Sequence record: PQ511146.1
DNA: 64,000 nt
Strand: one strand, 5' to 3'
DNA from: Escherichia phage NHEP1
Shown here: piece by piece, positions 9,660 to 23,690 of the stretch
How the letters are laid out: each line of letters begins with the position of its first letter
Numbering within the stretch: the stretch's first letter is position 1
Notes under the pieces: generated by a model
Seen by the model: only the letters and a program-made list of their open reading frames with translations
Database searches by the model: none
What the model was told of the DNA's origin: nothing
Position numbers and translations under genes: made by a program

Positions 9660-10054
9660 AGATTGAGATTACTGAAGAAGGTAAGAAAGTCTCTGGTAAC
9701 TATGCAACAGTTATCCGTGATGTAATGTTCGAAGTCACTAAGATTGGCACATCCAAGGTTGGTCAAACGGTGAGTGTGCAAGGTAATATCACCTCAGGAG
9801 AGAAGATATTCATCGTGATAAAAGGCCAGGATCCTGTAGAAGGGACAGTTGGACGTGGTGGATACTTGTGTATCTCTGAAGAGCCTCGCATGCTAGTTGC
9901 TGATAACTCCACAGGTAAAAAGCGAGTATGTAACACGGACGAGGTGATGATTATCTATCCAGTCAACCCGGATGATCCGGCAACATGGATTGTGGGAAAT
10001 GAAATCTTCTCTTTAGAAGAGTTATCCTTCCCAGCTCCGCGATCTGTTCAGTAA
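9656..10054 (+). CDS. Hypothetical protein
   Basis: Track ORF 132 aa, ATGA overlap with upstream gene. Confidence 0.55.
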   Translation: MKIEITEEGKKVSGNYATVIRDVMFEVTKIGTSKVGQTVSVQGNITSGEKIFIVIKGQDPVEGTVGRGGYLCISEEPRMLVADNSTGKKRVCNTDEVMIIYPVNPDDPATWIVGNEIFSLEELSFPAPRSVQ

Positions 10055-10093
10055 TAATTTATCTTACCAGGGACGGTAAAAGCAGGAGGTAGC

Positions 10094-10327
10094 ATGAAAG
10101 TTAAATTTCTTACAGATTTAGGGTACCCTTCCTTGGTTGACTGCGTTGGTAAAATTGTGGAAGCAAAACGGCTATCTGCAAACGATAATGTTGTCATGGT
10201 TAAGGGAAAAGATTTACTAGCTGCAGGTGCAGAGTCTGGCAGGATCTCTCCTGACTATACGTATTACCTGTCTTTAAGTAATCTACCAGAACGAGGCGGC
10301 AAAGGCCTTGAAGTTGTGGAGGAGTGA
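10094..10327 (+). CDS. Small acidic protein, paralog family A (MKVK...KG.DL.AAGA...VVEE)
   Basis: Shares N-terminal MKVK, KGxDLxAAGA core and acidic C-terminus with 13749, 13966, 15838, 16106 ORFs. Confidence 0.55.
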   Translation: MKVKFLTDLGYPSLVDCVGKIVEAKRLSANDNVVMVKGKDLLAAGAESGRISPDYTYYLSLSNLPERGGKGLEVVEE

Positions 10328-10869
10328 CAGGTATGCTTCTGATTAACTGGGAAGACCTCTATGGGGACAAAGACCCTGTTGCGTTTGTTGATCGTAGGTG
10401 GAGATACACTGAAGAACAACTGGCTGCAAAAAATTTAACTGCAAAACGCAGAAAGATCATCCAGTGCAAGTACAAATACGCACAGTTTGCTGCAAAAGTG
10501 TCTCCACAAATCGAGAGTTTTGTACTTAAATTGTATGACGAGTACCTCAAATTCAAATTGGATTTTGTACAGGTATACCGTGCACAGGTACGTCCAGATA
10601 CCAACATCTGTAGATGGAAGGTTGTTTGTGATGGTAAAGATTTGCCGCTCAGTTTGACAATTGAGTGGCGTTGGGGGTATCATGAGTGCGGTTTGTGTGA
10701 TATTTGGGATGTCATTGTAGATCCTGCTAAGTACCTGAACACAGAGGAGCTGGAATATATCAATAAGGTTATTCTAGATATGTTTTTCAGCTACACCCGT
10801 GAAAACTCTGAGAAAGAACGGGATAATTTTCTTGACACCCTCGGCAACCACCTGCAGTGTACAATTTAA
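10324..10869 (+). CDS. Hypothetical protein
   Basis: Track ORF 181 aa. Confidence 0.55.
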   Translation: MTGMLLINWEDLYGDKDPVAFVDRRWRYTEEQLAAKNLTAKRRKIIQCKYKYAQFAAKVSPQIESFVLKLYDEYLKFKLDFVQVYRAQVRPDTNICRWKVVCDGKDLPLSLTIEWRWGYHECGLCDIWDVIVDPAKYLNTEELEYINKVILDMFFSYTRENSEKERDNFLDTLGNHLQCTI

Positions 10870-10887
10870 CCTACAAAGGAGGAGCCA

Positions 10888-11124
10888 ATGAGTATAGATG
10901 CTGTGCTGATAGGTTACCTGGTAGTAGCTGTTATAACAGCAGTAATCTTGGCAGGTATATGCATCGTGTCTACACGAAGGGTGAAGTTTGATGATTTTAT
11001 CACCATCATCACTGCTGCGCCCTTTTGGCCTGTTGTTATCTTCATCGTAATAATGTGCCTAGTTGATTACCACAAGAATACCCGTAAGGAGAAAAAGGAG
11101 AGTAGGGATGGATACCGCACCTAA
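10888..11124 (+). CDS. Small membrane protein
   Basis: Hydrophobic N-terminal segments; RBS AAGGAGGAG. Confidence 0.5.
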   Translation: MSIDAVLIGYLVVAVITAVILAGICIVSTRRVKFDDFITIITAAPFWPVVIFIVIMCLVDYHKNTRKEKKESRDGYRT

Positions 11125-11239
11125 AACTGTTTATACTGTTCTTAAAGAGATTGCGTTCTACGCAGATCTTAGCCGGGCACCTTTATGGGAAAAGAATATG
11201 TATTTAAAATGGTGCGTGAAATTAGAGGGGGCCTTCTAA
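11108..11239 (+). CDS. Small ORF (43 aa)
   Basis: AAGGAGAG RBS 7 nt upstream; TAATG overlap with next small ORF. Confidence 0.3.
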   Translation: MDTAPKTVYTVLKEIAFYADLSRAPLWEKNMYLKWCVKLEGAF

Positions 11240-11358
11240 TGTTTCAAGCCATGTTTATTGAAATGCTCTCTGGGGTATTACTGCTGGTAGCCATTTTGGG
11301 TGGCGCGGCACTGATGTATAATTATCTTGAAAAAGGAGACAGTAATGACAAAAAATAA
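11239..11358 (+). CDS. Hydrophobic micro-protein (39 aa)
   Basis: MFQAMFIEMLSGVLLLVAILGGAALMYNYLEKGDSNDKK; overlaps next gene by 14 nt; junction sequence repeated at 18635-18659. Confidence 0.35.
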   Translation: MFQAMFIEMLSGVLLLVAILGGAALMYNYLEKGDSNDKK

Positions 11359-11530
11359 ATCCTTAGAACAGGCTGAAAACCTTCTCCACGAGCTGGTAAA
11401 GGAGTGGAAAGTTGAATACTCAGATTTTAATGCAAGAGAGGGGGAAGATTATTGGCCTACGGAGCGCTCAGAGGGAGAGTGGTATCAAGATTTCATAGAA
11501 TGGCTATATCAGACGTGCGATGAGGGGTGA
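11345..11530 (+). CDS. Hypothetical protein
   Basis: ATG 11345 with AAAGGAG RBS; track start 11327 is TTG. Confidence 0.45.
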   Translation: MTKNKSLEQAENLLHELVKEWKVEYSDFNAREGEDYWPTERSEGEWYQDFIEWLYQTCDEG

Positions 11531-11988
11531 CGATGTTTGTTAAATATGTAAAAACGTGCCTCAACAACCTTGGTAGAGAGCATTGGTACACACTGCTTGA
11601 AAAAGGAGAAATTTTAACAAAATCTGGAAAGATAACTTTGATACCTTTGGACGATAAAGACCCGTCACTACTTGTCATAGATGATTACGTTACAGGTGTG
11701 TCGTACGAGGTATCTGTGGAGAGGTTAATACGCAGATCTGGAGGTCCTTATGACCGAAGAGAGTATGTTTTCGATTCCGTTACAGAGAAGGAAGATCCGT
11801 CCCTGATGTTTAGGATGGTAATCAGGGATATGAAATCATCTATAAATAGGATCGTAAAGGACATTAAGGAGCCTTTTAGGGTAAAAGTTAAGAAGTTTTT
11901 TGATTCTAAGATCAACATACTCGCCGTTGTGCTGGGCGTAATTCAACTTCTGTTAATTTTGCACTATTTTGAACTGTTGTTTAAGTAA
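11527..11988 (+). CDS. Hypothetical protein with C-terminal hydrophobic segment
   Basis: Track ORF 153 aa. Confidence 0.5.
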   Translation: MTMFVKYVKTCLNNLGREHWYTLLEKGEILTKSGKITLIPLDDKDPSLLVIDDYVTGVSYEVSVERLIRRSGGPYDRREYVFDSVTEKEDPSLMFRMVIRDMKSSINRIVKDIKEPFRVKVKKFFDSKINILAVVLGVIQLLLILHYFELLFK

Positions 11989-12048
11989 TGTGCATTATGG
12001 CACAAAGGATGTGCCATAATTAAATAAACTAAGAAAGAGGTAGAGAGA

Positions 12049-12396
12049 ATGTCAAAGATTAAATCGATATTAATGTGGGTGTCTGTTGTAGCTTTTGTAG
12101 GATACTGGACTTGGGAAACTGAATTAAAAGATATTGGGTATACCAGCCTTGAGAGTAAGGCGTGCATTGGCATAACCGATGCATTCAGGCAGAATGCTAT
12201 GGATCACGAATGTGTCGATGCAGATATAGATGAGAAACTGTCTAAGGACAAAGATTTTTACCATGGTCATGCCTTGCTTGATAGTGGTGACACTGTAGAA
12301 TTCTGGTCGTGGTTCCGTGAAGATGGGACAATAAAGACAGCAGTAAAGATTTCCAACAAAGAGTTGATGCTGTTGCAGCAGAAGGAGGTGCAATGA
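12049..12396 (+). CDS. Hypothetical protein with N-terminal signal/TM segment
   Basis: Track ORF 115 aa; AAAGAGG RBS. Confidence 0.5.
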   Translation: MSKIKSILMWVSVVAFVGYWTWETELKDIGYTSLESKACIGITDAFRQNAMDHECVDADIDEKLSKDKDFYHGHALLDSGDTVEFWSWFREDGTIKTAVKISNKELMLLQQKEVQ

Positions 12397-12680
12397 TCTG
12401 GATATCCTACGCTGATGGCACCATGCTGTATACTGCAGGTACTAGATATGAAGTTAAGGAGGACGATAAAAAATTTATCGTAAAAACATTTGACAAGGAC
12501 GACAACCTTTTGCTAGAATTGACTTACAAGGTTGGGGATGTATCTAGCATCCAATTGGATTGCGGTCATAAAGATAACCCGCTCAAGAAACCTGGGGTAG
12601 GTAAAGCTTCAGAAGAACGCCTGTCTCGTATTGCAGAAAGCGTTTCTGCACAAAAATCTAAAAAGGGGACTAGAAAATGA
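12393..12680 (+). CDS. Hypothetical protein
   Basis: Track ORF 95 aa. Confidence 0.5.
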   Translation: MIWISYADGTMLYTAGTRYEVKEDDKKFIVKTFDKDDNLLLELTYKVGDVSSIQLDCGHKDNPLKKPGVGKASEERLSRIAESVSAQKSKKGTRK

Positions 12681-12871
12681 AAAACTTACATTTTAACACT
12701 TATTACTACAACACTTTGAATGATTTGTATTATATTGTTCGAAGTAAAAATCCTGAAACAGTCCTATTCTGCCGCGAACCTTTCAAAGGAGAGGAAGTGG
12801 AGTCTGAGATGAATGTTAGCCAGATTACCTCTTTGTTGCTCTCAGGTGCAATGGAAGAAGCAATATTCTAA
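12677..12871 (+). CDS. Hypothetical protein
   Basis: Track ORF 64 aa. Confidence 0.4.
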   Translation: MKNLHFNTYYYNTLNDLYYIVRSKNPETVLFCREPFKGEEVESEMNVSQITSLLLSGAMEEAIF

Positions 12872-12889
12872 ACCAGGCGGGAGGGTTTT

Positions 12890-13075
12890 ATGAAGCACTA
12901 TTGTCTGTCTGGTAGGATGGGGGTGGATTGTGATTGGGTTTTCTTAAAACTTGTCAGCGTTCGAGAGTCCATTCCAGAGGAAGAGCAAGAAAGTGAGCTG
13001 ATGTCATGGATCAACTATTACGGCAACACTTTCCGGTATGTCAAAATGGAAGAGCTGCCAAACGAGGATGATTGA
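12890..13075 (+). CDS. Hypothetical protein
   Basis: Track ORF 61 aa. Confidence 0.4.
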   Translation: MKHYCLSGRMGVDCDWVFLKLVSVRESIPEEEQESELMSWINYYGNTFRYVKMEELPNEDD

Positions 13076-13170
13076 TTATGGTAGCATCAATATTAACGTT
13101 TATGGGTGGCGTGGCATTCGGATTCATTCTTTGTCTGTTTATAGTTATTATGGCTATGCGAGGCTGAATT

Positions 13171-13455
13171 ATGAAACTGTTCGAGTGGTTTAAAAAGTTT
13201 AAATACCAGGCTGTTGCTGTATCGAAATGGACCGTCCGCTGGGTGGACGATGATGGAACACAAATTCCTGGTGATCAGGATACCGGATACTGGGTTATGA
13301 TGGAGAACGGATTTGGGAAAAGGAAGTTTAAATGTGCTGGCGCTCCTACTCTTTTAAATGTTAGGAATGTACCAGGGTACAGCACTATGGTTGTTTGGGA
13401 GCTATCCGGTGTTCCTCCTGCCAATGTGCAATATCTGCCAAACCCAGAAAAATAA
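13171..13455 (+). CDS. Hypothetical protein
   Basis: Track ORF 94 aa. Confidence 0.5.
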   Translation: MKLFEWFKKFKYQAVAVSKWTVRWVDDDGTQIPGDQDTGYWVMMENGFGKRKFKCAGAPTLLNVRNVPGYSTMVVWELSGVPPANVQYLPNPEK

Positions 13456-13467
13456 AAGGAGAAGATA

Positions 13468-13752
13468 ATGAGCAATGGTGTCAGCAACAGTGCTGCAGAG
13501 TTTAAAGTGATCTGTAAAGGAACTTATTGGATAGTGAAACAGAAGGTGTACCTATTCGGTTTCATACCGTTTTGGCAGAGATTTTGCTGGGGAGCTAACG
13601 AGCTTAAGAGATACGCCACCAAGGCTATGGCACTTATTGGTATAGCTGAATACATTGCTGCCAGGGACAGAGAGGGGAAAACTTGTTACTACACTGCTGA
13701 CGAGATTCGTAACAGTGTTTACGTTCCACAACCGCCTGAGGGAGACCGTTGA
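13468..13752 (+). CDS. Hypothetical protein
   Basis: Track ORF 94 aa with AAGGAG RBS. Confidence 0.5.
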   Translation: MSNGVSNSAAEFKVICKGTYWIVKQKVYLFGFIPFWQRFCWGANELKRYATKAMALIGIAEYIAARDREGKTCYYTADEIRNSVYVPQPPEGDR

Positions 13753-13976
13753 TGAAAGTTAAAGTTTTAGATTCAAGCTTCTATATTGGTCAGGAGCCCT
13801 TAGTGGGGAAAGTGTTTACCGCTATCCCTAACGAAGATTATCCTGACCTTTTAAAAATAAAAGGTGCAGATCTTATTGCCGCTGGTGCATCCCAGGAATG
13901 CTTTGACAGTCAGTGGACCTACAACTTTGCCCTAGGAGAGGATGTGGAGATAGTGGAGGACGATCATGAAGGTTAA
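13749..13976 (+). CDS. Small acidic protein, paralog family A
   Basis: MMKVKVLDSSFYIGQ...IKGADLIAAGA motif. Confidence 0.55.
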   Translation: MMKVKVLDSSFYIGQEPLVGKVFTAIPNEDYPDLLKIKGADLIAAGASQECFDSQWTYNFALGEDVEIVEDDHEG

Positions 13977-14220
13977 AATTCTTGACTCTAACGTCTACTT
14001 GGGACAATCCTTCCTGAAAGGAAAGGTCGTACCTGCTGTATACTTCGAAGGGTTGCCGTGGGACGATCCTGTGCGGCAAAATCACAGCCATGTAGGCCAC
14101 AATGTGGTGTTCATCTTGGGATCAGACCTGATCGCGGCTGGTGCCCCGGAATATTATTTCGGAGAGGACTTGTATTATGCCTTTGGGGCAGGGTCAGATG
14201 CGGATATTTTAGAGCTGTGA
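13966..14220 (+). CDS. Small acidic protein, paralog family A
   Basis: MKVKILDSNVYLGQ...GSDLIAAGA motif; tandem to 13749. Confidence 0.55.
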   Translation: MKVKILDSNVYLGQSFLKGKVVPAVYFEGLPWDDPVRQNHSHVGHNVVFILGSDLIAAGAPEYYFGEDLYYAFGAGSDADILEL

Positions 14221-14232
14221 TGGGGAACTATT

Positions 14233-14631
14233 GTGAAAAATAAACTGTTCAAAGTTACAATGAAAATTCGCGGAGCTTGGAGCGTAAAGCAAGGGCGTAT
14301 CCCCGAATTTGAGAAAGACTTCTACGTAGTCTCCACCTCGGAGGAGGCTGCATGCTGGCAGGCTGGCTATGCCTATGCAAGAACCTGGTACGAAGGATAC
14401 CAGACTGGTGGCTATGACGGAGAAATTATCAGCAAGGGTGTAGAAGAAATTAATGTGTTGACAAGTGAAAAAGTTTTTGTTATAGTGCATCCAGATTCCA
14501 GAGTGAAGCATTACTGGAATGCCAGAACAAAAACTTGGACACCGTTTGCAGATTCTGCTACACCACTTTTAAGCCAGAAAGCTCTTGACTCTGCTCCAAG
14601 CTACGGGGTTGTTGAAGAAAAGCTAAACTGA
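14233..14631 (+). CDS. Hypothetical protein, paralog family B
   Basis: C-terminal half similar to 16438..16833 (HP.S...YYW.....W TP motif). Confidence 0.55.
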   Translation: MKNKLFKVTMKIRGAWSVKQGRIPEFEKDFYVVSTSEEAACWQAGYAYARTWYEGYQTGGYDGEIISKGVEEINVLTSEKVFVIVHPDSRVKHYWNARTKTWTPFADSATPLLSQKALDSAPSYGVVEEKLN

Positions 14632-14648
14632 AACAGTGAGGTACCAAC

Positions 14649-14939
14649 ATGATGGATTTAGTTCTGGACACTGATAACACCGGAGCGTTTAAAAAGGATG
14701 GTGCAATAAGCATTGACCAATTCTTCCCTGCCAAGATTGACTCAAAATGGACCTACAAGTTTGACGGTGAGATCTTCGCAAATGATGAGAAGGTCGTGGA
14801 TGCTGTAGCCATTTTAAACGCTTTAGGGTATGACCCTGTGAACTCATTGATCAAGGATCCTGTTGAGTTTGCAGAGTATGTTCGTAAAATGGCAGATCTT
14901 GCAGTAGATATTTTAAAAACTATCGACAACAAGTTGTAA
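14649..14939 (+). CDS. Hypothetical protein
   Basis: Track ORF 96 aa. Confidence 0.5.
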   Translation: MMDLVLDTDNTGAFKKDGAISIDQFFPAKIDSKWTYKFDGEIFANDEKVVDAVAILNALGYDPVNSLIKDPVEFAEYVRKMADLAVDILKTIDNKL

Positions 14940-14945
14940 AAACTG

Positions 14946-15001
14946 TTGACACAACGCTTCAGATTTAGTATCATTGTTTTCAAAGAGGGTTGGTTCCCTC
15001 T
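14946..15001 (+). promoter_or_regulatory. Sigma70-like promoter (TTGACA-N17-TATCAT) followed by 5'UTR stem-loop AGAGGG/CCCTCT
   Basis: Hexamers at 14946-14951 and 14969-14974; hairpin 14984-15001; precedes HPF-like gene. Confidence 0.5.
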
Positions 15002-15020
15002 TCTTTAAAAGGAACACATT

Positions 15021-15338
15021 ATGCAAATTGAAATCACTGGCAACGTAGAGATCACTGAAGGTATGGTGTCTTTCATTTCCAACAAAATGTCCAAGCTGGA
15101 GCGTTTGCACCCCTCTGCCAACTATGCACGTGTGAGTGTAAAAGTTGAAAATGATCACCAGGAAGTTATGGCTTTCATTTTTGACAATTCTGGGAAAGAA
15201 GTTATCGCCAAAGCTAAAGGCAGCGATGCTTACGAGGCAACTGACCGTATGGTGGATGTTGCAGCACGCCAGTTGGCTAAATGCGGTGGAAAGAAAGGTA
15301 AGGGAAAAGGTAAAGTAAAGATTGACTTTTTAGATTGA
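15021..15338 (+). CDS. Ribosome hibernation promoting factor / RaiA (S30Ae family) homolog
   Basis: MQIEITGNVEITEG...KLERL...VKVE...ARQLAK pattern matches bacterial HPF/YfiA; Lys/Gly-rich tail. Confidence 0.8.
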   Translation: MQIEITGNVEITEGMVSFISNKMSKLERLHPSANYARVSVKVENDHQEVMAFIFDNSGKEVIAKAKGSDAYEATDRMVDVAARQLAKCGGKKGKGKGKVKIDFLD

Positions 15339-15475
15339 GGTGCTACAATGGGCATGATTAAGAAATTAGTCCCAAATGTAGAGATTGCATGCTTTGAAAT
15401 TATGTTTGCAATCGCAGTTGTAGTTAATGTGTTAGGTTACGGCTATTAATATCAAATAATTGAGGAGACCTCTAA

Positions 15476-15745
15476 ATGAAAATTAAATTATTCCAAACTG
15501 AGCTGGCAGACAAAAACTGTGGACTGGTTGAAGGCATGATCGTTGAAGCACAACCAGTTGACTACATGAAGGTGGTTCGTGATGCCCTGGGTGAAGGTTT
15601 TGATCTGATGGAGCCAGCTCTGCGAGAAGATGTCATCGAGATGGCTAAAAAGCACACACCGGAAGGTTTGGTAGTGTTTGTTGCACCAGGTAACGGGGAA
15701 GAGTTGATTGTAACTCCGGATGTGTATGAGGTTGTAGAAGAGTAA
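15476..15745 (+). CDS. Small acidic protein (C-terminal YEVVEE), paralog subfamily
   Basis: MKIKLF start and C-terminal VYEVVEE shared with 16913 ORF. Confidence 0.5.
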   Translation: MKIKLFQTELADKNCGLVEGMIVEAQPVDYMKVVRDALGEGFDLMEPALREDVIEMAKKHTPEGLVVFVAPGNGEELIVTPDVYEVVEE

Positions 15746-15837
15746 TCCTGCTTGGGTTAGCATACTTTCCTCTACAAGAAAGGTTTGTAATTATTTGTGG
15801 GAAAGGAATCCCCATCTCTTACCAGAGGTGATACTAT

Positions 15838-16101
15838 ATGATTGTTTATTTTAAAACTTCAGGTGGATACCCTGATTCTCAAAGCTTGATTGGAAAAACG
15901 TGCACAGCATACTCACCTCTTGATGAGGAGGTAAGCAATATCCTACGAGATATGTATCGGATTGATCCCCAAGAAGCTTTTGATCAAAACCTTGTATTTG
16001 TCAAGGGATCAGACATAAAGTCTTTGGGGGCATTCCCTGAAGCAGATGATGATGCTGTTTATTCGTTTATGACACCTTTTGAAGCTATGATTGTGGGGTG
16101 A
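15838..16101 (+). CDS. Small acidic protein, paralog family A-like
   Basis: VFVKGSDIKSLGA core motif. Confidence 0.5.
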   Translation: MIVYFKTSGGYPDSQSLIGKTCTAYSPLDEEVSNILRDMYRIDPQEAFDQNLVFVKGSDIKSLGAFPEADDDAVYSFMTPFEAMIVG

Positions 16102-16105
16102 GAAT

Positions 16106-16438
16106 ATGAAAGTACGCTTTATTGGTGAAACAATTCCTGTGCATCTCCGGTCTCCTGAAGACTCTGCAGATCTTGCATCTCAAAAGGCGAGAGGGTATGA
16201 TAAGAAAGTGATCTCAAGCAATGTAGAGCTTGAGGCCACCAGTCTACCTGACCCAGCTGCATTCTTCAATCATTATGGCTACTATTTTAGCAATCTGATG
16301 AATATTGGTGAGCTTGTGTTTATTAGTGGTGGAGAGATAGTTAGCAAGCTTGGTGGAGATCCGGATATCTTTCATGAAACCTGCCCTTTTGCATTTGTGG
16401 TGGGTTCAGATGTGGAAGTTATTGAGGAGGTTCGGTAA
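16106..16438 (+). CDS. Small acidic protein, paralog family A-like
   Basis: ATG 16106 (MKVRF) after GGGGTGAG; C-terminal VEVIEEVR. Confidence 0.5.
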   Translation: MKVRFIGETIPVHLRSPEDSADLASQKARGYDKKVISSNVELEATSLPDPAAFFNHYGYYFSNLMNIGELVFISGGEIVSKLGGDPDIFHETCPFAFVVGSDVEVIEEVR

Positions 16439-16833
16439 TGGTAAGTCTATACCGTGTTGAGTATAGCTCGGATACTGTATACAATGTAAGAAGCAAAGAT
16501 CGCAGTGACAGAGTGCAAGAAATGTATGTTCTTGCAGACAGTCCGTTATCTGCAGCGTTCAAGGCAGGAGCTCTTGCATCTCGTTGGAAATTTGAGGGTG
16601 GATCTTTCTATGAAGAAACCCTTGAAGATTCTGTTGTTATTTCTTCTGTAGAGGTTTCAACCGACTACGAAGGGAAAAAGTTCGTAATGCGGCACCCACA
16701 CAGCAACATTGCGTACTACTGGGATGTTCTGAACAATGAGTGGACCCCTGATCTTCAGAAGGCCACTGTTCTAACCCCATTCCTGGCAGATAAGTTTCCA
16801 CCAGAAGGTAATTTATCTGCACTGTTTCAGTAA
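16438..16833 (+). CDS. Hypothetical protein, paralog family B
   Basis: Similar to 14233..14631 over C-terminal half. Confidence 0.55.
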   Translation: MVSLYRVEYSSDTVYNVRSKDRSDRVQEMYVLADSPLSAAFKAGALASRWKFEGGSFYEETLEDSVVISSVEVSTDYEGKKFVMRHPHSNIAYYWDVLNNEWTPDLQKATVLTPFLADKFPPEGNLSALFQ

Positions 16834-16842
16834 TTTTATGCC

Positions 16843-16880
16843 ACACAGGTGTTGACAACACCAACCCTGTGTGCAATAAT
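16843..16880 (+). promoter_or_regulatory. Promoter TTGACA-N17-AATAAT embedded in a 12-bp-arm palindrome
   Basis: CACACAGGTGTTG...CAACCCTGTGTG inverted repeat overlapping the -35. Confidence 0.4.
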
Positions 16881-16912
16881 ACCTTCATCTTAACAAGATA
16901 GGAGACCGATTG

Positions 16913-17170
16913 ATGAAGATTAAATTGAAAAACCTTGAAACGGCAGAGATTCAGGAAGGTATTGATTTCCGTTCTAAAGATGGAGACATCCTGGAGGCGA
17001 ATGTCCCGACATATAAGTTGATTAAAGGTTTTGGCAACGTTCCGGAGGAGGATATTACAGACATTCTTATGATGTTGATCCTTGACGGGACTGTGTTTGT
17101 AGGTGAAGGTGAGAACGCTATTGCAATCCCGAGCCATTTTTATGAAGTAGTTGACGAAGAGGTGCTGTAA
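16913..17170 (+). CDS. Small acidic protein (C-terminal YEVVDEEVL)
   Basis: ATG 16913 after AGGAG RBS. Confidence 0.5.
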   Translation: MKIKLKNLETAEIQEGIDFRSKDGDILEANVPTYKLIKGFGNVPEEDITDILMMLILDGTVFVGEGENAIAIPSHFYEVVDEEVL

Positions 17171-17521
17171 ATGAAAGTAGAGATCACAGGTTTTGATATG
17201 AATGCGGTTCCGGAAGATATTTTAGCTAAACTCCCGGAAGGTTTTGGTAACGGTGTTGTGGTTGATGCTGTTCCTCCTACCAAAGACATCCTGCTGCAGT
17301 ATGGTGTGGCAGAGGAAGATGTTGATAAAGTTCTTACAATGATGGCAATCGACCGTGTTGTCGTTGTTAAAGGTCTTGAAGGTTTTGATAACGATCCTCT
17401 GATTATTCGTGGTGATGACTATCATGTCATCGACAACGAAGGCCAAGAGTTCTACGAACCTTCTGCTGAAGATGTTCTTAACTTACTACTGGAAGCAGGC
17501 ACCGAAGAGGAGGAAGAATAA
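17171..17521 (+). CDS. Small acidic protein with poly-Glu C-terminus
   Basis: Track ORF 116 aa ending EEEEE. Confidence 0.5.
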   Translation: MKVEITGFDMNAVPEDILAKLPEGFGNGVVVDAVPPTKDILLQYGVAEEDVDKVLTMMAIDRVVVVKGLEGFDNDPLIIRGDDYHVIDNEGQEFYEPSAEDVLNLLLEAGTEEEEE

Positions 17522-17850
17522 TGAAAATTGATCCGTTACTGAAGGCTCGTGCAGAAAAAGCATACACTATCAAGCTGACCTCTCTGGTCCCTACTTGTCA
17601 TCCGGATGTAGGTTGGCCTGAAGGCTTGGTAGAGGGGACTGTAACAGCTGCATACCTTCCTAACATCAAATACCTCATGGAGATCTTGGAGATGGATGAG
17701 GAAACGGCAGAACAGTTCCAGTTAGACATGAAGCAAAGTGGGACTCTGGTTATTCACGGGTGGTATAATACTAAAGATGCAGAAGATCCCCTGGTAACTT
17801 CTAATCTGGCATATGAGATCTTAGGGCCTTTGAACTTGGGGGAAGACTAA
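17521..17850 (+). CDS. Hypothetical protein
   Basis: Track ORF 109 aa, ATGA overlap. Confidence 0.5.
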   Translation: MKIDPLLKARAEKAYTIKLTSLVPTCHPDVGWPEGLVEGTVTAAYLPNIKYLMEILEMDEETAEQFQLDMKQSGTLVIHGWYNTKDAEDPLVTSNLAYEILGPLNLGED

Positions 17851-18137
17851 TGAAAGATTTGGTTAAGATCAAGATTAAAGACACCAATGGAGAACTCAGC
17901 CATTTTGGAATTAACGATGGTGACGAGCTGATCGCCCACCTGCCTACCAAGGAAGTTGTAAGCAAAGCGGTTGCCGGAGAAGAAGATGCAATGCAGGCTG
18001 CAGGTGTGGATGAAAGCTATGTAGCAATGTGTATGTGCCGAGATCAGGTTGTTCTGTATAAAGCGTATCGACCAAATGGAGCACCTGAGTGGCTTGTTTT
18101 CCGACCCGAAGGGTATGAAATTTTAGAGACGCTATGA
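17850..18137 (+). CDS. Hypothetical protein
   Basis: Track ORF 95 aa. Confidence 0.5.
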   Translation: MKDLVKIKIKDTNGELSHFGINDGDELIAHLPTKEVVSKAVAGEEDAMQAAGVDESYVAMCMCRDQVVLYKAYRPNGAPEWLVFRPEGYEILETL

Positions 18138-18226
18138 TAAATCTTGCCAAGGTTGCAACGGCACTGTTAATTATTTGCTGGATAGTGACCTTGGCACTAT
18201 GTCTTGTATTTCATTAAGGGGGCTAT

Positions 18227-20763: not shown

Positions 20764-23270
20764 CACACAAGTCTGCTTTGCAGGTTTAGCTGCTCAGCTA
20801 AGGTTCTGGAGGCACCTATAACATCTTCCAACTAAATTTCCTACCAACACAGTTACTTACCTACCACACATGACTGTTTGCTTGTTTAGTGAGCAGTCAT
20901 CACTTGACATTCTTGCCTATCTTGATAAAATTAAGTTCTTCTCTTTTCTTTTACCGAGTAATTCGGGTTTTCTGTTCTCTTCGGTTTGAAGGGGTATGGA
21001 GATACACCTGAGTGAACAGGGTGAACAACCGAACCTTTAGCTATGGCATTAGCATGGCGAAGCGGACGGGTGACGAAAGAGGGGCCGGAGGACACCAGTC
21101 ACTGCCATATAGTATATGGGTGATAACCTGAAGAGTCTGAATAAGTGTTTAAGTACCAGTCAGAGGAAAAGGTGAATGGTAGCCGAAGGGGGAGGGGGGT
21201 TTCTTATATCTTTAATTTGTATACTTTATATACACTTGTAAACCAATTCAATTAGAATCTGTTTACCACACAAAGGGGATGGAGACAAATATCACCTATT
21301 AAACTTGAATTATTTATAGAAAATACCACAACACCCGTTAAGTCTTTGATTTTACACACAAATCTTACAAATATCCTACCTCCACATTTAACATACTTGT
21401 AACATATTCCATATCCTACCTGCCTGATCAATTTACTCCATCACATTCCCACATTTTCCCTGTCTGTACTACCCCACCCCCGCCGGGAGTCCCGTCATAT
21501 CTGGCTTTCCAGCAAATATCACACCAACAAATATCATCACCTGAAGAGGGTTTCATCCCATAATACCTGCCTTACCTGAAGAGCGCTTCATACACCACGT
21601 AAATTTTTTAATTGACCCCTCCCCGCCGCCAGAGAGGTTGGCTTTTCCCACACAGGCCTGAAGAGTCAGCCAGAAATATCTGAACAGGCAGTTATGTCCC
21701 GATTTTGTGCTTGTCCTACAGGAGTGCTGCCAGGCGGACGGAATGGGAATACTTCTCATTCTTATAATAATTCTCAAATATCGAGGCAGTGAGGCAAATT
21801 AATAGGCCAGGCCGTTCACACAGTGGCACAACATTTGCAATCTATCTTGTGTGGATGAATGAGAATACCTATCATTGTGAGAATGGTTATCATTACGGGC
21901 AATTTAACATAATACCCATTATGCGCACCACTGGCGATACATACAGGGATTGATAACATGGGTTACTGTTTACGCATATAACAATTATATTTCTTACTAT
22001 TTGTGTGGGATATAGTTAGCAACCAATAGATTAGATATTGACCTGCAGACTTCTGACCGTCCAGACGTCTAAACGCCCACACAACAAGGATTATACATAC
22101 ACTCCTGCATGTAACCAGGGCCGCAAAAATGCTACCATACCAGTTTGTAAATTTTTCATGCAGCACTTGACAAAGAGGAGAAAAACTTGTCTGACACAAT
22201 GTGACAATTTTGTCACTTTTGACACTTTTACCTTTGACACAATATGACACAATAACGGCTGTTACTATTCCATATCTCACTGTTTACGCCTGAATAGTTT
22301 ACGCAAAAACTGTTTACACAGAGATGATAAGCCATGCCATTCGTTTGCATGAAAACAATTAACAAGATAACAATTGACAAGCTAACAGCCAACAAGCTGA
22401 CAGTTAATAAGTTAATAAGTTATGACATAATATAAAAGCAGGGCAACTATTAGAAGATCTATAGTTGCCTTGCTTGTTATGTCATGATTAACTAAATACA
22501 AGGCAACTATGATCTGAATAATAGATTGCAGACAAACTATCACGGGGGTGATTGTTACTGCTTTTATATTATGTCGCGACTCCGTCGCGCCATGCCATTC
22601 GTTTGCATAGTTGCCTTATTGTTACAGGTAAAACAATTACATTATTAATTATTTCTTATCTTTCTCTTAGTCATCTAATGATTCCAGTCAGTATAGTAAT
22701 GTACAGTAAACATTAGACGACTAAATATTTCTCTGTGTATAATAACTTATCGTGACAATTTCGAACTGTTTACGAAAAATGTTGACACCTGAGCTGATTT
22801 ATGTTATGCAGTTTACACGAATAATTATTTTATGCAGGTATTGACTATTCCGTTATTCTGTGGTTGGAATAAATACTTTGCAGACTATAGAATGGCGTGC
22901 GTACGTGAATTCTGAGATCTGGCGGCTATAGTTATACTCGATTTTTCGCGTAGAACACGCTTTCGATGCTGTGTAAGTGTATGACTTATAAAGATTTTTA
23001 GTTGTTGACAAGATATTGGAGATGTGCATCAGGTTAAAATTTGTGCAATAGCGGCATTACGTGCACTTTTGGGAGAGAAAACGGGTAAAAATGGCCCTGC
23101 TACCACACAATGAAAGATTATGCAATAGTTATTTTCCATGTATATTTGTACAGTATGTGGGATTGATGGCTAGTCAATTATTCCACTTGCCAGGTAGGGC
23201 CGTTTATGGTAGGAGAAGAGCAGACAAAAAGAAAGGGGCCTTTAAGCCCCTTGATAATTCAGTTAAGAAA
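20764..23270. repeat. ORF-poor, repeat-dense non-coding zone at the convergence of plus and minus transcription blocks
   Basis: No convincing ORF of 100 aa or more; at least five short repeat families seen (see findings). Confidence 0.6.
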
Positions 23271-23690
23271 TTATAATGATTCGTATATTTCAAAAATCCG
23301 ATTTGCCAGGTCGTTACGGTAGCGGAATTTTTCATCGCGCTTGATCATTAAATCCTTATAGCCGTACTCTTTAAGCACTTCATTAACTTTATAGCGGCAT
23401 ACCTGCATATTATCTTGAGCGTCACCAATAAACTTGTTGCTGTGGTGCATTGCTTTAATTTCTTCTTCCAGGACCAGGGCAACTACCCGGACCGGATCAA
23501 GCTGATAGGCGGTAACATCTATGCGGCATTGTAGACGGCTTTTAACGTCTGCCACCGGATATACTGCAACCTCTTCCCCGTCAACATTGACAATAATTAG
23601 TTTACCATCGATTTCGAATCCTTTCGCCGCCGGACCGTGACAAAAAGCGTTATCAAAGCTATATGCCGGATTATCAGATTTAATGTTCAT
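23271..23690 (-). CDS. Hypothetical protein
   Basis: Track ORF 139 aa; ATG with AGAGG RBS. Confidence 0.5.
   Translation of the reverse strand: MNIKSDNPAYSFDNAFCHGPAAKGFEIDGKLIIVNVDGEEVAVYPVADVKSRLQCRIDVTAYQLDPVRVVALVLEEEIKAMHHSNKFIGDAQDNMQVCRYKVNEVLKEYGYKDLMIKRDEKFRYRNDLANRIFEIYESL

Follow-up and report, generated by a model that had tools for sequence, protein, structure and literature searches.

The T4 early open reading frames (ORFs), the T5 pre-early genes and the SPO1 host-takeover module are dense operons that encode proteins of at most ~120 amino acids (aa), mostly of unknown function, under host-type promoters. Here, we describe a block of small genes in a 64,000-nucleotide stretch of Escherichia phage NHEP1 (PQ511146.1; this whole stretch is the window), in which ten genes on the + strand between positions 10094 and 18137 form an array of paralogs. 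In contrast to the T4, T5 and SPO1 blocks, these ten genes are demonstrably paralogs within two subfamilies that have one predicted fold in common, and their domain is shared with unrelated phage groups. The genes themselves are not new, since over 100 sequenced genomes list them under the name 'hypothetical proteins'; that ten of them form a paralog array of two subfamilies is statistically solid, and structure prediction gives them an SH3-like scaffold.

Small SH3-like barrels include the eukaryotic SH3 domains, the KOW domains of Spt5/NusG, PsaE and the C-terminal domain of PhnA. The window proteins are only 4 to 25% identical to these, structural scores are too low to pick one superfamily, and one of the two subfamilies described below (subfamily A) has a conserved one-turn helix (G-x-D-L-I-A-A-G-A) after strand 3. 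DUF7244 (PF23896; PMC13164509) is likewise a standalone SH3-class coliphage protein of ~60 to 80 residues with an unknown function; however, it has no detectable sequence relation to the array and occupies a different genomic position. Both occur in phage T1, where the DUF7244 protein is ST14, encoded at the lysis cassette, and the family-A protein, with two domains, is ST71, encoded in the region of the left end. T7 Ocr, ArdA and T4 Arn resemble the array proteins in being small, acidic and early-expressed, the last of these being presumed for the array, but the array differs in its predicted fold class and has no sequence match to them, and the phage group to which it belongs is reportedly sensitive to restriction-modification (RM).

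Judging from nucleotide identity, the window belongs to an rV5-like Escherichia coli myovirus of the genus Vequintavirus. The stretch 10000–18200 is 98.7% identical to Escherichia phage vB_EcoM-ECP26, and the 121 phage records that match it, all of them rV5-like, mostly do so at a single place covering at least 80% of the 8.2-kb query (114/121). The array lies within a block of densely packed small genes, all on the + strand, that spans ~5.8–20 kb, and the sign of the GC skew flips near 20 kb. Literature searches turned up neither functional work on these genes, nor a transcriptome, nor any reference to their paralogy: the text of the rV5 paper (PMC3606486) contains neither 'paralog' nor 'duplicat', its gene table (Table S3), from which our rV5 ortholog numbering is taken, gives no function to the orthologs of the nine array ORFs listed in a preliminary description of this stretch, and in a PNAS 2026 paper on daunorubicin vequintaviruses appear solely as drug-sensitive.

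Two subfamilies on one predicted scaffold

The preliminary description had proposed one paralogous array of at least nine ORFs, and we compared the 35 + strand ORFs of the 8.5–19.6 kb block by local BLASTP and then compared ortholog profiles pairwise. Significant BLASTP links among array members were found solely inside two groups. Subfamily A (genes are named here by their start positions: 10094, 13752, 13966, 15838 and 16106) is robust, as all five members are joined by pairwise profile matches of 82 to 99.6% (E values of 1.6e-22 for 10094–13752, 1.2e-23 for 13752–13966 and 8e-7 for 13966–16106), and each member matches a wide family profile at 98.5 to 99.5%. Subfamily B (15476, 16913, 17171, 17521 and 17850) is more diverged, with pairwise P values of 2e-4 to 0.02, yet its alignments are full-length and collinear. 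When each B member was left out and compared with a profile of the other four, matches reached 76 to 91% (E 1e-5 to 1e-6), against 3.6% for the highest-scoring of 25 ORFs of the block that are not members, and on these sequence comparisons B is a coherent, if diverged, group.

The link between the two subfamilies is marginal. Narrow profiles of A and B match at only 7%; an A alignment enriched with distant relatives (A6) matches B at 70% in hhalign (E 4e-5) over 80 collinear columns, pairing the MKVK, G-K-V-V-x-A, V-x-I-x-G and C-terminal E-I-V-E-E strands, and the 25 control ORFs score no more than 1% against A6. Common ancestry of all ten genes is therefore probable. A six-frame HMM scan of the window returned exactly these five A and five B genes and no further members. 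Thus, the proposed similarity is far above chance and the multi-copy family stands, but it divides into two weakly linked subfamilies and includes a tenth member (17521–17850) that had been missed.

Other details of the preliminary description needed similar adjustment. Its nine ORFs are all on the + strand where it placed them, except that position 13749 is a TTG; related records begin this gene at the ATG at 13752. The proposed MK(V/I)(K/E) start applies to seven of the nine (15838 begins with MIVY and 17850 with MKDL), and the KGxDL(I/L)AAGA core is present in 10094, 13752 and 13966, degenerate in 15838 (GSDIKSLGA) and 16106, and found in none of the others. The acidic C-termini are as described.

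Both subfamilies are predicted to form SH3-like barrels with an identical strand order. The AlphaFold model of the 13752 protein (A; pLDDT 91) has five strands and a short helix at GADLIAAGA, and that of the 16913 protein (B; pLDDT 84) has a helical insertion between strands 2 and 3; the best structural matches of this five-stranded small barrel are of the SH3, KOW or Tudor type. The conserved barrel strands are the N-terminal MKVK, G-K-V-V-x-A, V-x-I-x-G followed by the short helix, and the C-terminal Y-E-V-V-E-E. According to the alignments, the paralogs differ mainly in the strand 2-3 loop, which holds paralog-specific insertions of 0 to ~50 residues: 14 residues in the 13966 protein, a longer insertion in the 15838 protein, and ~50 inserted residues in the 16106 protein, the most diverged A member. 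The 17171 protein has, in addition, an acidic C-terminal tail ending in EEEEE. Structural neighbours in BFVD are small uncharacterised proteins of Merlin, CS01, RB49, Sf20, ZCKP1 and other phages.

The array proteins are more acidic than their surroundings, with isoelectric points (pI) of 4.05 to 5.39 (median ~4.4) versus a median of ~5.8 in the 25 other ORFs of the block (Mann-Whitney p=2e-4). In nine of the ten, the pI is 4.05 to 4.68 and the net charge −6 to −22, the latter extreme belonging to the 17171 protein; the net charge of the 10094 protein is only −1. About half of the unrelated neighbouring ORFs are likewise acidic.

Database searches placed the proteins without naming them. None of the ten matched a relevant Pfam family even at E ≤ 1, including any SH3, SH3b or KOW model, and 37 wider family-A members gave no Pfam match; NCBIfam and PADLOC gave no match for any of the ten, and sequence and profile searches of the PDB with the members and the enriched family returned nothing usable. 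No member matches a known structural-protein family, the kind of assignment that, according to the preliminary description, would have refuted its proposal. In PHROGs, full-length matches (E 1e-31 to 1e-74) were obtained to phrog_5009, 13367, 8603, 13920 and 13661 for A and to phrog_11868, 12359, 12155, 12457 and 12794 for B, every one of them labelled 'unknown function'. PHROGs distributes the ten genes over nine families and does not record their paralogy on one scaffold; distant family-A proteins also match phrog_5009, 13367 and 7345.

Conservation, history and wider distribution

All ten genes are under purifying selection, as judged by sequence comparison with phage AlexBoehm (~92% nucleotide identity): their dN/dS ratios of 0.04 to 0.19 resemble those of the neighbouring ClpP-like, methyltransferase and HPF genes. 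Shine-Dalgarno motifs (GGAG, GAGG or GGGG) lie within ~15 nucleotides (nt) 5' of the start in 10/10 genes. Stop and start codons overlap as TAATG at 16438, 17521 and 17850, and the genes meeting at 17170/17171 abut directly; the TAATG junctions suggest translational coupling. A scan with the sigma70 consensus returned seven 11-of-12 matches, all on the + strand, two of which are intergenic within the array (14946 and 16852) and are the same as the rV5 promoters P144 and P150 predicted in the literature. Such host-type promoters fit early accessory genes and agree with the early-type region proposed in the preliminary description; early expression is what we infer from them.

The duplications behind the array are old. 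Between paralogs we found no DNA-level repeats beyond the shared ATGAAAGTTAAA gene starts, which by itself implies age, and a 128-kb metagenomic relative (L006) holds all ten orthologs in the same order at 28 to 75% amino-acid identity; therefore, the duplications are older than this split, and every paralog was kept individually. The same relative has one copy only of a further gene, C, which is present twice in the window. The gene order A-A-C also occurs twice (13752–14631 and 15838–16833). This hints at a segmental duplication, which is unsupported, since 13752 and 13966 are mutual best matches.

Copy number has nevertheless changed in natural variants. A 70-aa hybrid protein (P0015) matches the 13752 protein at 45/46 positions in its first 46 residues and a 13966-type protein at 23/24 in its last 24, with the junction inside the GADLIAAGA motif. 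Its gene replaces both the 13752 and 13966 orthologs, with the C gene directly 3', and this arrangement is found in two independent contigs (L011 3001–3213 and L012 3001–3213), one of them 133 kb long. On sequence, P0015 is the product expected of unequal crossing-over in a natural vequintavirus variant. A second hybrid (P0027) joins a prophage-type N-terminal half (41/44) to the C-terminal half of the 13752 protein (28/28), again at GADLIAAGA; as it is known only from European Nucleotide Archive (ENA) contigs of at most 1.6 kb, it could be either a recombinant between phage groups or an assembly chimera.

The preliminary description had regarded the array as a lineage-specific expansion. The multi-copy family is real, but the array is old and fixed, and subfamily A also extends to T1, RB49-like phages, lambdoid prophages and uncultured phages. 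A word-indexed search returned chiefly vequintavirus orthologs, together with two others, one of 75 aa from lambdoid E. coli prophages and one of 107 aa from an SU10-like phage. An exhaustive HMMER search expanded subfamily A to 46 clusters at 50% identity, with the consensus MKVKLLNDGGY-G...VGKVV-A...V-I-G-ELI-AGA...F...Y-F..G-E-EVIEE; among them are proteins with two or three tandem domain copies (P0104, P0115 and P0096, the last with three domains in one protein) and C-terminal fusions. By tblastn, family A is present in Krischvirus phages (RB49-like), Tlsvirus LL5, Iodobacter PhiPLPE and mEp554/mEp013. Many uncultured phages have it too. In phage T1, the hypothetical protein ST71 (L015 2344–2832) consists of two tandem subfamily-A domains (E 3e-9); its gene, in the small-gene region at the left end, runs across the boundary at which the terminal-repeat feature annotated in T1 (1–2800) ends. 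Multiple copies recur elsewhere, as adjacent pairs in L005 and L007 and as two copies in L010. Neither subfamily B nor the C pair was found outside vequintavirus-like contigs, the C search returning vequintavirus orthologs only.

Where genomic contexts could be read, they are consistently accessory. The lambdoid prophage copy, which is present in 13/5426 complete E. coli genomes, sits between the Q antiterminator and the holin, ~0.9 kb 5' of the latter; an SU10-like contig has its A gene next to a helix-turn-helix (HTH) gene, and a 42-kb contig has one between primase and recombination genes. In both T1 and LL5, the family-A gene is in the early left end, away from the lysis cassette. The contigs of the multi-domain relatives P0096 and P0126 are too short to inform on context.

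The array genes and their surroundings

The table lists the array members, the C pair and the two intergenic promoters. The 10094 gene stands apart from the other array genes and is the member closest to the lambdoid prophage copy (50% identity). The promoter at 16852 heads a four-gene B block. The two C copies are 29% identical (E 2e-11).

Features of the array, with rV5 orthologs and the matches that support each assignment
Feature	Position	Strand	Support and remarks
Subfamily A, 77 aa, rV5 gp127 ortholog	10094..10327	+	phrog_5009 E 2.5e-36; profile matches
Subfamily A, 74 aa, gp140 ortholog	13752..13976	+	Profile matches; AlphaFold model
Subfamily A, 84 aa, gp141 ortholog	13966..14220	+	Profile matches; 11-nt overlap with the 13752 gene
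Paralog pair C, copy 1, 132 aa, gp142, phrog_7379 (function unknown)	14233..14631	+	Directly 3' of the A-A pair 13752/13966
Intergenic sigma70-type promoter, TTGACA-17 nt-TATCAT	14946..14974	+	Published rV5 P144
Subfamily B, 89 aa, gp146 ortholog	15476..15745	+	83.6% versus profile of the other four
Subfamily A, 87 aa, gp147 ortholog	15838..16101	+	phrog_13920; phrog_5009 E 1.5e-4; profile matches
Subfamily A, 110 aa, gp148 ortholog	16106..16438	+	91% to 13752 and 13966; 98.5% to family profile; stop overlaps next start
Paralog pair C, copy 2, 131 aa, gp149	16438..16833	+	Directly 3' of the A-A pair 15838/16106
Intergenic sigma70-type promoter, TTGACA-17 nt-AATAAT, extended -10	16852..16880	+	Published rV5 P150
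Subfamily B, 85 aa, gp150 ortholog	16913..17170	+	85.1% versus the other four; AlphaFold model
Subfamily B, 116 aa, gp151 ortholog	17171..17521	+	76.4% versus the other four
Subfamily B, 109 aa, gp152 ortholog	17521..17850	+	85.5% versus the other four; tenth member
Subfamily B, 95 aa, rV5 gp153+gp154	17850..18137	+	91.3% versus the other four

The last ORF of the array is intact in the window and in AlexBoehm; in rV5 it is annotated as two genes, gp153 (70 aa) and gp154 (44 aa), a split indicating that the rV5 gene is frameshifted or truncated. Two product names found in GenBank (e.g., in records PQ014731 and MK883717) are probably errors of annotation carry-over. Orthologs of 15476 are called 'sigma 54 modulation factor', a label that has no Pfam support; the true HPF gene lies at 15021, and 15476 is not similar to it. 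The other name, 'non-specific endonuclease', is given to an ortholog of 16913, again with no Pfam support. The HPF gene itself, encoding a ribosome hibernation factor (HPF/RaiA family, PF02482, E 1e-12), lies in mid-array at 15021–15338 behind its own sigma70-type promoter at 14946.

Several further features of the surroundings were recorded. The ORF at 11527–11988 is the ortholog of rV5 gp133 (151 aa, one predicted transmembrane segment) and is named 'virion structural protein' in several genomes; according to the rV5 paper, gp133 is among the predominant virion identifications by mass spectrometry (MS), yet it has only 2 spectra and 15.9% coverage. At the change of sign in the GC skew, the ~2.5 kb from 20800 to 23300 lack tRNAs, Rfam matches and, on both strands, ORFs longer than 105 aa, and short iterated repeats (TGACAC-type 9-10-mers and 15-mers) cluster at 21509–22422. 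By coordinate offset, this region corresponds to the gap reported for rV5 as having 'no observable ORFs 104013-106618', and it may be a replication origin or a control region between divergent transcription units. Finally, 18 records titled 'Campylobacter phage', in 16 of which the host is given as Campylobacter jejuni, hold the array region at ~92% identity, a surprising finding for rV5-like phages of E. coli that points to mislabelling or contamination of these isolates.

What the array proteins may do

We tentatively read the ten paralogs as a diversified set of stoichiometric SH3-like binders, in two anciently diverged subfamilies, that would serve as early, non-structural accessory proteins and not as enzymes or DNA mimics, and we give this reading slightly less than an even chance. 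The ten co-oriented genes would encode variants of one ~70-residue SH3-like beta-barrel, within a small-gene block transcribed from host-type promoters early in infection, and each paralog would be a small binding module for a different host or phage partner, stoichiometric binding being the most likely mode of action. The array would have arisen through old tandem duplications, and its copy number may still shift by unequal crossing-over at the conserved stretch coding for GADLIAAGA. A role as binding modules is favoured for the following reasons: (i) the predicted fold class; (ii) the small size of the proteins, which lack a catalytic signature (no enzyme or other family signature was found in Pfam, NCBIfam, PDB or PADLOC searches); (iii) the combination of a conserved core with one variable loop; and (iv) the retention of every paralog. 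A bolder and rather unlikely version would have each strand 2-3 insertion neutralise a different host sensor or machine, making the array a binder repertoire on one scaffold that draws its renewal from unequal crossing-over and from exchange with prophage copies at the GADLIAAGA stretch and that plays the same role in T1-like, RB49-like and lambdoid phages.

Binding could be directed at host immunity, with each paralog blocking, or acting as a decoy for, a different immune protein. The members are small, acidic, multi-copy, located in an early-type region and diversified at one loop, and their relatives take accessory or moron positions, such as the gap between Q antiterminator and holin in lambdoid prophages and the early left ends of T1 and LL5. 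On the other hand, they match no known anti-defence or defence-associated family, their orthologs, far from being patchy, are fixed in 100+ genomes and kept there by purifying selection, and Vequintavirinae are reportedly little protected against RM and sensitive to Fun/Z (PMC8594841), so that we consider an anti-defence role unlikely but plausible, as is a part in host takeover. The more specific idea of DNA mimicry raised in the preliminary description, under which an acidic surface would pass for DNA and tie up host proteins that bind DNA as an anti-restriction measure, draws on the strong acidity of nine of the ten members and is very improbable. A predicted 70-residue SH3-like barrel is unlike the folds of Ocr, ArdA or Arn, and no Pfam match to those families was obtained; furthermore, the 10094 protein is barely acidic, many distant family members are not strongly acidic, and acidity is common among the unrelated neighbouring ORFs. 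These phages have also been reported as 'exceptionally susceptible' to RM systems (PMC8594841), an observation that speaks indirectly against mimicry.

The variants need not act independently. Like the barrels of Sm-type rings, the paralogs could form one hetero-oligomer in place of ten independent binders, which would suit the tight coupling of the overlapping and abutting genes, the co-retention of the complete set in the distant relative L006 and the presence elsewhere of two to three tandem domain copies inside single proteins; we regard this arrangement as improbable. An accessory role in the lysis module, by analogy with SH3b cell-wall-binding domains or the standalone SH3 protein DUF7244, has a very slight chance of being correct. 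It is suggested by the position of the 10094 gene two genes 5' of the rV5 'putative holin' gp129 (window 10888–11124), by the place of the closest lambdoid-prophage relative of that gene ~0.9 kb 5' of the holin, and by the standalone SH3 protein described beside the lysis cassette in Drexlerviridae (PMC13164509). However, T1 ST14 matches PF23896 at E 9e-29 and the A and B profiles at only 0.1 to 0.2% (hhalign versus A6 and A5), and neither the window proteins nor their family-A relatives match PF23896, nor was there a Pfam SH3b match. The rV5 endolysin (gp89) is encoded far off, 9/10 members are not near lysis genes, the holin near the 10094 gene is a predicted one, and the family-A gene of T1 and LL5 is not at the lysis cassette. 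Equally hard to credit is a place in the virion, whether as structural or as packaged and injected proteins. The label 'structural protein (MS evidence)' carried by rV5 gp152, the ortholog of 17521–17850 (PMC3606486 Table S3), goes back to two single spectra of 7-residue, semi-tryptic, singly charged peptides with XCorr values of 1.8 to 1.9, in a preparation in which the head decoration protein gave 1077 spectra and the non-structural RNA ligase gp82 gave 14; no other member was detected there.

The array of stoichiometric binders proposed here concerns phages of practical weight, as rV5-like phages belong to the E. coli myoviruses isolated most often and have uses in biocontrol and therapy, while their small-ORF block of ~88 genes has no functions assigned. 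The analysis brings ten genes together, ties them to a wider coliphage domain that carries no annotation and of which T1 ST71 is an example, and clears away the DNA-mimic lead as well as several GenBank product names that lack support. Ten orphan genes thereby become one experimental problem, that of finding partners, and the A domain extends to phages with easy genetics, namely T1 (ST71), RB49-like phages and lambdoid prophages.

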